Below are positions 15,460-28,531 of a stretch of DNA of 39,859 nucleotides, piece by piece. The stretch's first letter is position 1; every line of letters begins with the position of its first letter. Both the position numbers and the translations under genes were made by a program. Under the pieces are notes generated by a model. That model was not told the DNA's origin. It ran no database searches and was given only the letters and a program-made list of their open reading frames with translations. Source of the stretch: an uncultured Clostridia bacterium. GTDB lineage: Bacteria; Bacillota; Clostridia; Oscillospirales; Butyricicoccaceae. The DNA lies in the NCBI GenBank assembly GCA_945872165.1, contig CAMBYS010000001.1, forward strand, positions 1-39,859, given 5' to 3'.

Positions 15460-15645
15460 TTATGCACTGCGGCGAACGTCATGCTTCACACGGTCATGCT
15501 CTTCTGCACGCTTTGCGTTGTTGAAACGGTCCAGTGTGCCTACCAGATAACCGGTGATGCGGCGGATACGCTCGAAGCCAACGCCTTCGCCTACCATTTC
15601 TTCACCCTGTTCATTGTATGTGACATGATTCAGTTCGTTCATCAT
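15460..15645 (-). CDS. Stand-alone NrdD glycyl-radical domain (61 aa)
   Basis: FERIRRITGYLVGTLDRFNNAKRAEEHDRVKH is the normal NrdD C-terminus including the radical Gly; own RBS AAGGAGGG. Confidence 0.9.
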   Translation of the reverse strand: MMNELNHVTYNEQGEEMVGEGVGFERIRRITGYLVGTLDRFNNAKRAEEHDRVKHDVRRSA

Positions 15646-15658
15646 AAAAAAGCCCTCC

Positions 15659-17995
15659 TTAACAATTACACATTTCTTTCAGTGGCATCAGCGGATTCGG
15701 ACGGCGATCCCGTTCTTCATTCGGATCACCATGATAACCGATGGTATCACTGTTATGGTTTTTATATACGCCAAGCTGACGCAGCTTTTCAATGCTGATT
15801 GCCTCGCCTTCACGACGACCACAGCGTGGGCAGACATCATCAATGATGCCGGTATAGCCGCAGATCGGGTCACGGTCAACCGGATGGTTGATGGAACCAT
15901 AGCCGATACCACTTTCCTTCATGTAACGGACAACCGCTTCAAAGGCATCCAGATTCTGTGTCGGGTCACCATCCAGCTCTACATAGCTGATATGACCGCC
16001 ATTGGTCAACTCATGATATGGTGCCTCAAGCTGAATTTTCCGGAACGCAGTAATCGGATAATATACCGGTACGTGGAAGGAATTGGTATAGTAATCCCGG
16101 TCTGTTACACCCTCAATGGAACCAAAGCGTTCCCGATCCAGACGGACGAAGCGTCCGGACAGGCCCTCTGCCGGTGTAGCAATGACGGAGAAATTCAGGC
16201 CGGTTTCACGGCTCTCACGATCCATGCGTTCCCGCATGCGTCCTACGATGGTCAGGCCCATGTTCTGTGCCTGCTCTGATTCGCCGTGATGGACACCCAT
16301 CAGTGCCTTCAGGCATTCTGCCAGGCCAATGAAGCCAACGGTCAGGGTACCATGCTTGAGCACTTCGCCTACCTTGTCATTGGGACCCAGCTTGTCGGAA
16401 TCAATCCACACACCCTGTCCCATCAGGAACGGATAGTTGCGTACCCGCTTCTCACTCTGGATCTTAAAGCGTGCCTTCAACTGGTCAACAACCAGATCCA
16501 GCTTTTCATCCAGTTCGTTAAAGAATGCCTCCACATTGCCCTGTGCCTTCAGCGCAATGCGCGGCAGGTTAATTGATGTAAAACTCAGATTGCCGCGTCC
16601 GTTGACAATCTCACGGGTCGGGTCATATACATTGCCGATGACACGGGTACGGCAGCCCATGTAAGCAGCCTCGGTCTCCGGATGTCCCGGCTTGTAGTAC
16701 TGTGCGTTGAACGGCGCATCCAAGAACGAGAAGTTCGGGAACAGACGCTTTGCCGACACACGCATTGCCAGTTTGAACAGGTCATAGTTCGGGTCTCCCG
16801 GATTGTAGTTGACGCCTTCCTTGACCTTGAAAATGTGAATCGGGAAGATGGAAGTCTCACCATTGCCCAGACCTGCCTCTGTTGCCAGCAGCAGGCTCTT
16901 CATGGCCAGACGGCCTTCCTGGGAGGTATCGGTACCATAGTTCAGGGAGGAGAACGGAATCTGTGCGCCGGCACGGGAATGCATGGTATTCAGGTTGTGT
17001 ACCAGTGCTTCCATTGCCTGATAGGTGGCACGTTCGGTCTCACGGCGTGCATACTTCAGGGTAAATGCCATGACACGCTCCACGGTTTCCGGTGCAATGC
17101 CCCGCTCCAGCAGCCGGTCACGGATCTGCTCCGAGGTGCCGTTGTCATCCGCCAGCACCGGCTTCTGATCACAGGCCTCAATCAATGCCTTAGCCGGCTC
17201 CAGGCCTTCCTCCTCGATATCAAAGACCTCCAGCGCTTTGGCAAGATTGTCACGGTAATTGTGCCAGTAGGTCTTGCGCACGCCCGGTGCCATGCTGTAA
17301 TCAAAATTCGGAACACTCTGTCCGCCGTGCTGGTCATTCTGGTTGGACTGAATGGCAATACAAGCCAGTGCGGAATAGCTGCGGATGTCATTGGGCTCAC
17401 GCAGGAATCCATGTCCGGTAGAAAAACCATTTTCAAACAGCCTGAGCAGGTCAATCTGGGTGCAGGTGGTAGTCAGTGTGTAAAAATCAAAGTCGTGAAT
17501 ATGGATATCGCCTTCCCGGTGTGCCTTGGCAATATACGGCTCCAGCAGGAACATTTCATTGAACTGCTTGGCGCCCTCCGAACCATACTTGAGCATGGTG
17601 CCCATGGCGGTATCACCGTCAATGTTTGCGTTTTCACGCTTGATATCATTTTCAATGGCGGACTGGAAGGTCAGATCCTCATAAATCTTCATCAGTCCGG
17701 TATTCATCTCACGCTGGCGCGAACGCTCATTGCGGTACAGGATATATGCCTTCGCGGTGCGGGCGTGTCCCTGCTCCACAAGGATTTTCTCCACAGCGTC
17801 CTGCACATATTCCACTGTCGGTGTTGCCGACGGGCTGTGCGCCTCGACATAATCTGCCACATCCAATGCCAGCCGCATGGACAGCTGGTAGTCATGGCCC
17901 CCGGAAGCCTCCGCAGCTTTGTAGATAGCATTTGCAATCTTTGTTATGTCAAAAAATACACATCTGCCGTCTCGTTTTTCAATCTGCTGTATCAT
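15659..17995 (-). CDS. nrdD: Class III anaerobic ribonucleoside-triphosphate reductase large chain, lacking an intact glycyl-radical motif
   Basis: ATP cone (IEKRDGR), HIHDFD..TTTC, YMGCRT thiyl Cys, ATPAEGLSGRF, YYTNSFHVP, DPIC..CPRC metal site; no RxxGYL motif. Confidence 0.95.
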   Translation of the reverse strand: MIQQIEKRDGRCVFFDITKIANAIYKAAEASGGHDYQLSMRLALDVADYVEAHSPSATPTVEYVQDAVEKILVEQGHARTAKAYILYRNERSRQREMNTGLMKIYEDLTFQSAIENDIKRENANIDGDTAMGTMLKYGSEGAKQFNEMFLLEPYIAKAHREGDIHIHDFDFYTLTTTCTQIDLLRLFENGFSTGHGFLREPNDIRSYSALACIAIQSNQNDQHGGQSVPNFDYSMAPGVRKTYWHNYRDNLAKALEVFDIEEEGLEPAKALIEACDQKPVLADDNGTSEQIRDRLLERGIAPETVERVMAFTLKYARRETERATYQAMEALVHNLNTMHSRAGAQIPFSSLNYGTDTSQEGRLAMKSLLLATEAGLGNGETSIFPIHIFKVKEGVNYNPGDPNYDLFKLAMRVSAKRLFPNFSFLDAPFNAQYYKPGHPETEAAYMGCRTRVIGNVYDPTREIVNGRGNLSFTSINLPRIALKAQGNVEAFFNELDEKLDLVVDQLKARFKIQSEKRVRNYPFLMGQGVWIDSDKLGPNDKVGEVLKHGTLTVGFIGLAECLKALMGVHHGESEQAQNMGLTIVGRMRERMDRESRETGLNFSVIATPAEGLSGRFVRLDRERFGSIEGVTDRDYYTNSFHVPVYYPITAFRKIQLEAPYHELTNGGHISYVELDGDPTQNLDAFEAVVRYMKESGIGYGSINHPVDRDPICGYTGIIDDVCPRCGRREGEAISIEKLRQLGVYKNHNSDTIGYHGDPNEERDRRPNPLMPLKEMCNC

Positions 17996-18077: not shown

Positions 18078-18125
18078 ATACAAAATATGTAGGCATAACA
18101 CACATATATACACAATATATTGTGT
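18078..18125. promoter_or_regulatory. Tandem NrdR boxes
   Basis: ACACAATATATTGTGT (18110-18125, perfect palindrome) and ATACAAAATATGTAGG (18078-18093), 32 bp apart, downstream of the nrdD promoter. Confidence 0.88.
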
Positions 18126-18151
18126 ATTCGTGGGAATCGGAACTATCTCAT

Positions 18152-18180
18152 ATTTTAGTACGTCAGGGAACAGATGTCAA
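18152..18180 (-). promoter_or_regulatory. Sigma-A promoter of the nrdD operon
   Basis: Minus strand TTGACA-N17-TAAAAT. Confidence 0.75.
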
Positions 18181-18466: not shown

Positions 18467-18482
18467 CCACAATATATAGTGG
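18467..18482. promoter_or_regulatory. Distal NrdR-box-like site
   Basis: CCACAATATATAGTGG near-palindrome matching the NrdR consensus. Confidence 0.55.
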
Positions 18483-25088: not shown

Positions 25089-25269
25089 AGTAGCGATAGC
25101 GCATCACGGGAGCAAACCGGTGACAGCCGGACAGATATTCTCATGCCCGTCCAGATAAACGCCTGCGAATCCGACATTCTCTTCGGCAGCTTCCCCTTTC
25201 CTGCCCGGTCATCGAAAGGATTCGCCTCCTAACGGGCAATACTGATGTCAGCTGCGCCTCAATCGTACT
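25089..25269 (-). promoter_or_regulatory. Lysine riboswitch
   Basis: Minus strand GAGGCGC...AGTA...GAAAGG...GCCGAA...CTGTC...GCGCTATCG conserved blocks upstream of asd-dapA-dapB; promoter TTGACA-N18-TAGAAT at 25319-25290. Confidence 0.92.
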
Positions 25270-25442
25270 TATACAACTAAGCTTTTATTATTCTATCATG
25301 TGATAATTTGCTTTGTCAAGACGATTCCATGGGGAAACCGCACAAAACGACAGCATTTCCGGCTCTTGATTTCGTATGCCCTTTACGGTATCATAGATTT
25401 TATATCATTCCTGACATCTGAAGCAGATTTTATATCCAATAT

Positions 25443-27944: not shown

Positions 27945-28144
27945 CGCGCAACCCCGGCAGCCGGACATACTGGTCCGGCTGCTGGCAAAGCTTTTGCGGA
28001 ATGCAAACATGATAATATATCCAAATAACATGACAATTTATCCGAACTGTTTTTCTATGTAATCCTACTCTTTTTGTTTCATCTGTGTTATAATATAGAA
28101 AATGTTTGGAGACGGTTCCAAACAGGCAAACACAATTGAATAAG

Positions 28145-28335
28145 AAATAATCGGTGCCTCTGCCTGCGGCATAGCTGCAGAGACAGAGGGTAAAAGGGAA
28201 ACAGGTGCAAATCCTGTACGATCTCGTCACTGTGATGGAGGAATAAGAAGCAATGGTGCCGCAGCACCGGTCACTGGCTGTATAGCTGGGAAGGCTGCTT
28301 CCTGTGTGGATTCCTGAGTCAGGAAACCTGCCGCT
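28145..28335 (+). promoter_or_regulatory. Cobalamin (B12) riboswitch
   Basis: GGTGC...AAAAGGGAAACAGGTGCAAATCCTGTAC...CACTGT...CACTGG...GGGAAGG...GAGTCAGGAAACCTGCC B12 box; TG-TATAAT promoter at 28089-28094; upstream of cbiK. Confidence 0.95.
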
Positions 28336-28531
28336 TATTTGTACAGGAATATACATTCCAGATCACGAGGTATTGGTCGTACGTTTTTTGAAGCTGCGTT
28401 TGCAGAGGATGAACTTGGTCTGGTCCTTTATGATAAAAAGGACTTTTTTTACGTTCATACTGACAGAACGGAGTGTTTGTTTCTGTTGCTCGATCCAGTT
28501 GTTTGCAACATTTTTTTAGGAGGGTTAAGTC

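Follow-up and report, generated by a model that had tools for sequence, protein, structure and literature searches.

A split class III ribonucleotide reductase: the predicted radical-glycine loop of NrdD is encoded by a separate small gene in a Butyricicoccaceae bacterium and its relatives

How could a class III ribonucleotide reductase (RNR) operate when the glycine that should bear its radical is encoded by another gene? The question is raised by a 39,859-nt stretch of DNA from an uncultured member of the Butyricicoccaceae (contig CAMBYS010000001.1; the whole stretch analysed, hereafter called the window), in which nrdD, a small ORF and nrdG follow one another on the minus strand in an operon-like order (Table 1). 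A sequence-only reading had claimed that this NrdD has no RxxGYL motif, that the motif lies in a separate ORF between nrdD and nrdG, and that this ORF begins 13 nt past the nrdD stop, in another frame and behind a strong ribosome-binding site (RBS). All of this was borne out. NrdD matches PF13597 at positions 1–531 of 562 (E 2.5e-190) and the small ORF matches it at 533–562, its sole Pfam match; the gap is 13 nt with a change of frame; and TAAGGAGG, which begins with the nrdD stop TAA, stands 8 nt ahead of the small-gene ATG. The nrdG gene starts 3 nt past the small-gene stop. We conclude that the split NrdD is real and widespread, and consider it likely that the two genes together make one class III RNR, in which the 61-aa protein is an obligatory second chain that would bear the radical on Gly32 and is predicted to dock next to Cys448.

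Table 1. Features of the split nrdD locus (positions in the window)
Feature	Position	Strand	Basis
Sigma70-type promoter-like site, TTGACA-17-TAAAAT	18152..18180	-	11/12 positions match
Putative NrdR-box match	18110..18125	.	0 mismatches to consensus
nrdD, large chain, 778 aa	15659..17995	-	profile matches and structure model
Metal-site segment on the large chain (D709, C712, C722, C725)	15821..15871	-	alignment to 8P23
Decayed remnant of the loop's pre-glycine part, NrdD aa 727-745	15761..15817	-	V743 at the Gly position
RBS TAAGGAGG, overlapping the nrdD stop codon	15654..15661	-	sequence; control windows
Small Gly-loop protein, 61 aa (possibly 60)	15460..15645	-	PF13597 positions 533-562
nrdG, activase, 167 aa	14953..15456	-	TIGR02491, 145.7 bits (cut-off 126.1)

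The closest named relatives belong to Butyricicoccus (NrdD is 91% identical to that of B. porcorum), and the window DNA is present in pig-gut runs. Upstream of nrdD, RNA-library contigs from two studies stop at 18132, a weak hint of a transcript start nearby. The NrdR-box match was scored against what we take to be the consensus for this box; a second NrdR-box-like palindrome, with 2 mismatches, lies ~340 nt upstream of it (18467–18482). Elsewhere in the window, a cobalamin riboswitch (28135–28349, plus strand) precedes cbiK and an ABC transporter cluster, and a lysine riboswitch (25089–25270, minus strand) precedes a semialdehyde dehydrogenase gene; both are ordinary.

The large chain carries what had been ascribed to it, namely an ATP cone (PF03477, aa 4–92), both active-site cysteine regions (C178 and C448, each invariant in 72/72 aligned rows) and a putative metal site, which alignment to P. 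copri NrdD (8P23) places at three cysteines and Asp709. The NxN flap (N122/N124), the HxHD motif (165–168) and the finger-loop MGCR with C448 are also in place, the last being a class III motif according to the accessible text of bioRxiv 2022.04.23.489257. The chain has the NRDD barrel fold and scores above the NF005497 cut-off, and its model, of low confidence past aa 745, resembles P. copri NrdD (8P23/8P2C, Foldseek). The putative metal-binding site differs from that of P. copri in its first cysteine, which is an Asp here. Throughout the 778-aa chain, no RxxGY or GYL motif was present. A search of the source genome (G000, 96.8% complete) found one NrdD body, one loop gene and no fused NrdD, and class I/II RNRs, PF02867 included, were not matched there. 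The split NrdD is the only RNR found in G000; since the assembly is 96.8% complete, a further one could be missing.

The small protein aligns with P. copri NrdD 707–738, a segment that includes radical Gly711; the radical domain of that enzyme starts after residue 676 and takes in the metal site, according to the available part of PMC11226230. With the metal-site segment staying on the large chain, the detached part comes down to the Gly loop and the final helix. The earlier claim of a separate glycyl-radical domain thus holds for the Gly loop and C-terminal helix but not for the whole domain. Similarly, the claim of a 61-aa gene is right for the ORF, but this opens with ATG-ATG, and since most close relatives begin at the second Met the protein may be 60 aa long. 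The predicted radical residue, Gly32 (15552–15550), sits in an RITGYL loop that, together with the glycine, is invariant in 73/73 aligned small proteins, and an N-terminal VGEGVxF motif is conserved as well. With dS near saturation, dN/dS among members of the genus comes to ~0.013 in the small core, 0.03–0.06 in the tail of NrdD and 0.06 in its core, values which point to strong purifying selection on the small core and to purifying selection on the NrdD tail. PF01228, the PFL-type Gly-radical domain, was not matched by the small ORF; G000 contains a single match to it, within a 350-aa frame at another place.

The large chain, for its part, ends in a decayed copy of the first half of the loop. 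A profile of the small proteins (-13 to +1 around the Gly) best fits the split tails in a single register in 93/93 cases, with a median z of 4.3 against shuffles. This register puts the Gly position 16 residues past the last CxxCG, compared with 15–18 in fused enzymes. GY is kept at the radical position in four split tails (L044, L063, L093 and L126; e.g. RRIKGYV), which are possible intermediates. G730 is found in 86/93 split tails, 80/84 small proteins have both G(-13) and G(-11) as against 1/27 fused loops, and a GEG/GEA strand shared by the two chains of split systems is conserved in each of them but not in fused linkers. We rejected the whole tail, including its EExDR part, as a copy of the loop, only the pre-Gly half being well supported: the post-Gly half gave 0/93 ungapped matches, with gaps 14/33 long tails reached p≤0.05 (kin, not independent), and the profile–profile probability of the tail comparison was 50%. 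One split NrdD without the metal-site segment (L115, G043:C52) keeps the remnant tail and adjoins a small gene, and a second partial NrdD match was seen in G044 (L117).

A prediction of the NrdD–small protein complex, one of the checks named in the sequence-only reading, passed its controls. The model (NrdD 100–770, Zn and the small protein) scores 0.64, the best control reaching 0.00; the mark applied is reached by 116/157 solved pairs and by 2/215 mismatched pairs. From run to run at least 81% of the contacts recur, and the partner pLDDT is no lower than 72. The lowest-error pairs bring together NrdD 707–711 with residues 22–25 of the small protein, and NrdD 730–735 with residues 16–23; the latter pairing, which has no counterpart in single-chain NrdD, is predicted to be a clasp joining the two duplicated strands. 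The modelled interface takes in NrdD 447–449, with the thiyl Cys448, and Gly32 is not among its named contact residues. This pass may stem from the likeness to the solved single-chain NrdD (8P23).

How common is the split? The proposed survey of related loci found it conserved, together with the separate RBS. The small protein was found at 110 loci, 88 of them split with nrdD adjacent, 9 fused and 13 without nrdD upstream; a few loci were retrieved twice, and among the 13, L051 adjoins a NrdD without metal-site segment that the motif filter missed and L024 lies at a contig end. Having been collected by way of the small protein, this sample is biased towards split forms; phylum-wide, among the matches listed, most are in fused frames. 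Titles of the split loci name Bacillota, Desulfovibrionaceae, Fibrobacter, Treponemataceae and Succinivibrionaceae. Within the genus, 22/23 genomes are split, the remaining one being cut at a contig end. A Shine–Dalgarno match of at least 6 nt precedes 63/88 small genes vs 19/880 control windows under the same best-start rule. The 13-nt gap of the window is specific to its lineage, because its NrdD ends 8 residues later than those of the nearest relatives (778 vs 770 aa); the median gap is 34 nt.

Some relatives place the two genes far apart. In the single-contig genome G620 the only NrdD body, with a Gly-less tail, and the only loop gene are separated by 666 kb, a distance at which the loop has to work in trans; G785 was left out of this evidence because an intact NrdD of a different type is present in it as well. 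Together with the lone RNR of G000, the conserved split, purifying selection and the model controls, this makes the earlier two-chain reading a well-supported one. NrdG would abstract a hydrogen from Gly32 of the small protein, placing the glycyl radical before docking, and the small chain would dock next to the catalytic Cys448 through the normal strand beside the metal site and the new clasp. A detached loop fits known chemistry, because the radical domain of single-chain NrdD flips out for activation (PMC12662201, available part). As to origin, the 3' end of nrdD would most likely have been duplicated as a free gene, the built-in loop decaying afterwards, and the end of the resulting large chain would resemble that of an enzyme cut by oxygen. 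The sequences themselves show how the genes are arranged, that this arrangement is conserved, that a loop remnant ends the large chain and that relatives have free loop genes alongside intact NrdD; in this scheme we infer that the small protein is expressed, that the radical forms on it and that it binds, as well as the order of events.

What a separate loop is good for is a further question, on which several readings compete. One of them, which was proposed in the sequence-only reading, which would add to the two-chain scheme and which we put just short of an even chance, is an adaptive spare part: O2 would cleave the small chain alone, the pieces would leave, and a fresh copy would make the large chain active again, in the way that YfiD/GrcA serves PFL. 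This is favoured by free loop genes that are retained alongside an intact NrdD. In the G042 family (121 genomes searched), 40 of the 56 genomes with a fused NrdD also hold a separate short loop frame, and 20 of these 40, when fetched, all proved to be 92–116-aa proteins with a shared N-terminal domain of their own. The same pairing is present in 12/12 genomes from the window's order (picked for showing it), and at L312 an intact nrdD, a free loop gene and nrdG are consecutive. Extra copies point the same way (2–6 small copies in 9/10 genomes chosen for a lone small gene), as does viral carriage, with no nrdD at the locus, as distinct from the whole contig, in 70/80 viral loci bearing the small gene. 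At L121 (G042:C10, 881–2340) an extra loop gene is flanked by genes for a Crp/Fnr regulator and rubrerythrin, all three on the same strand and spaced by <25 nt, and at L087 an extra small copy stands ahead of a flavodiiron-type gene. The retained overlap strand also parallels PFL 696–733, which, when retained by O2-cleaved PFL, is required for rescue by YfiD, according to the accessible part of PMC8683613.

Other observations weigh against a spare part. G000 has a single copy of the gene, which belongs to the nrdD operon and is thus preceded by an NrdR-like box. Genes of O2 defence are rarely found nearby (2/15 extra short copies, 2/20 long free copies, and one divergent Crp/Fnr gene at 17 further long copies), the gene-context survey of short and long free copies having found no consistent O2-stress neighbourhood, and when the regions ahead of 23 small genes were scanned strictly for NrdR or FNR/CRP motifs, a single FNR-like match came up. 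The predicted clasp is N-terminal of Gly32, so that a cleaved N-terminal fragment could stay bound, and re-fusion seems to be tolerated, given that split and fused forms alternate on the tree.

The free loop proteins of the relatives deserve a description of their own. A model of the ~95-aa protein (pLDDT 64) has a beta-alpha-beta-beta N-domain; the best hit of the fold search (VIA-align Z 5.2) was uninformative, and Atlas clusters were mainly NRDD-labelled. This long loop family of ~90–100 aa (L141–L160, L291–L308, L268, L280, L312), with its predicted beta-alpha-beta-beta N-domain, is found alongside intact NrdD, and its genes often lie next to those for alanine racemase/CvpA or for a sigma factor. 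More distant Bacillota with a fused NrdD likewise have free Gly-loop proteins (L323–L326), whose N-domain is similar. A truncated NrdD with a differing tail is paired with a long loop gene at L316 and L331, and at L313 (G199:C7, 2920–3556) a truncated nrdD is followed by two tandem small loop genes and then nrdG. The layouts of the relatives can be read as a series of intermediates, from an intact NrdD with a free loop protein to a Gly-less body far from its loop gene.

On a wider scale, we tentatively entertain, with rather more doubt than belief, that class III RNRs have a whole system of autonomous glycyl-radical cartridges that has gone unrecognised. In it, free loop proteins would repair intact NrdD after oxygen, many anaerobe bodies would have lost their own loop and evolved a self-complementary clasp for a swappable cartridge, and phage-borne cartridges would maintain host dNTP synthesis or take it over. 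Without exchange after O2 it is hard to account for the free copies alongside intact NrdD, for the extra copies and for the viral carriage.

Neutral subfunctionalisation is a second reading, possible in our view though it falls somewhat below an even prospect. Here the duplicate loop would have made the built-in one dispensable, and the chains would assemble a single time, O2 then destroying both of them so that nothing is gained in repair. On the NrdD-core trees split bodies lie among fused ones, the fused label needing 8 changes on the first tree and 12 on the second, at least two split/fused changes being forced by strong branches; a single origin of the split bodies, as one clade, was rejected on the second tree (p-AU 9e-7), and the fused NrdD L164 (G407), nested among split bodies, is a candidate re-fusion. 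It follows from this alternation that the state flipped, or the 3' end recombined, several times. Such intermixing favours a neutral history, under which the homologous overlap would make re-fusion easy. The trees are, however, quick searches with many weak branches, on which gene transfer or recombination could mimic flips; near-identical rows had been dropped (105 of 120 in the first tree; a 72-row subset in the second, with L115 and L332 skipped). A neutral history also gives no account of the free loop genes beside intact NrdD, the extra copies or the viral carriage, and the tail has gained new conserved residues that are absent from fused enzymes.

We regard as unlikely a third reading, in which the supply of small protein, or translational coupling, sets the amount of armed enzyme, phages exploiting this for host dNTP supply. 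It would agree with the tight spacing between the small gene and nrdG in many loci, with five f60 genomes in which loop gene and nrdG travel together away from nrdD, and with viral carriage of the small gene; that spacing, however, varies widely in some loci.

Synthesis of a single protein by recoding (frameshift, readthrough, bypass or splicing), suggested by the adjacent frames and by a T-run ahead of the small-gene ATG in the window, is very improbable and was rejected. All three frame offsets are represented across the 88 split loci (33/37/18), with gaps of anything between -11 and 298 nt; the small gene has its own RBS; a fused product would hold the strand twice; and in G620 the two genes are 666 kb apart. 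Contigs from three of the four RNA-library runs (X14, X15 and X17) cross the junction without a gap, that of X18 ending at 15655, and no splicing joint was found in the bridging contigs, which by themselves do not prove transcription or translation. An assembly error or dead gene, an idea helped by the habit of annotators to leave such short ORFs as hypothetical, can be dismissed with near certainty, since contigs of four DNA runs (X12, X13, X2 and X7; X12 not flagged as a possible source of the window, the other three perhaps its source) cover the junction, where the sequence-only reading had asked for a check of the raw reads, with no gaps and no differing letters, and since conservation of the split, dN/dS and the standing of this enzyme as the only RNR found in G000 all speak against it.

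A June 2026 review (PMC13450708, section 5.3 as available) gives formate lyases as the only glycyl-radical enzymes with known spare-part proteins, the others being undetermined. The accessible parts of the literature name as split RNRs NrdJa/b, of class II, and one from a cyanophage that was subsequently reannotated (PMC8683613, PMC11226230, PMC12662201, PMC9669993, PMC9531940, bioRxiv 2022.04.23.489257, PMC4390871, PMC3019208, PMC12288474, PMC11528403). A term search in the available part of PMC13376575 gave no match, and our literature searches, with subscription papers, theses, RNRdb and supplements outside their scope, found no description of a split NrdD or an NrdD spare part. The 61-aa protein may be the first swappable spare part seen outside pyruvate formate-lyase. 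Together with its relatives, the window locus offers direct test cases for spare parts in an essential enzyme of gut anaerobes; a natural 7-kDa NrdG substrate would make it easier to study radical installation by structural methods and EPR, and the small protein would guide the design of replaceable radical modules. There is a lesson for annotation as well: split NrdDs look complete to HMMs, scoring above the NF005497 cut-off although they have no radical Gly, and the partner is often called hypothetical.

How does the locus compare with known systems? With single-chain class III RNRs (Prevotella copri 8P23, the closest one solved; S. thermophilus 9D3X; phage T4 1H78) it shares the fold, ATP cone, NxN flap, HxHD, MGCR loop, RITGYL and an adjacent nrdG, and it has a putative metal site at the corresponding place. 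It differs in that the radical Gly is absent from the barrel chain, its motif being encoded elsewhere in the locus: the counterpart of P. copri 707–738 is a separate gene, the large chain ends in a decayed loop copy and has Asp for the first cysteine of the putative metal site, and a conserved strand has been added at the N-terminus of the small chain. The split class II RNR NrdJa/NrdJb is likewise a natural two-chain RNR with a separate C-terminal part (PMC9669993, available part); its class I/II barrel, PF02867, has no match in G000.

The autonomous glycyl-radical cofactors of PFL, E. coli GrcA/YfiD and phage T4 Y06I, are likewise free small proteins holding a Gly loop and C-terminal helix. 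As in the window, a strand is duplicated between small protein and large enzyme, and here too viral contigs carry the small gene. The partner of GrcA/YfiD is PFL, whereas that of the window protein is NrdD, and the window protein has no PF01228 match. GrcA/YfiD also coexists with an intact enzyme bearing its own radical Gly, whereas G000 has no fused NrdD; being the only loop in that genome, the window protein would be a standing subunit and not a back-up. Coexistence with an intact NrdD is found among the longer free loop proteins of the relatives, and by analogy these ~95-aa proteins would be the closer counterpart of GrcA/YfiD.
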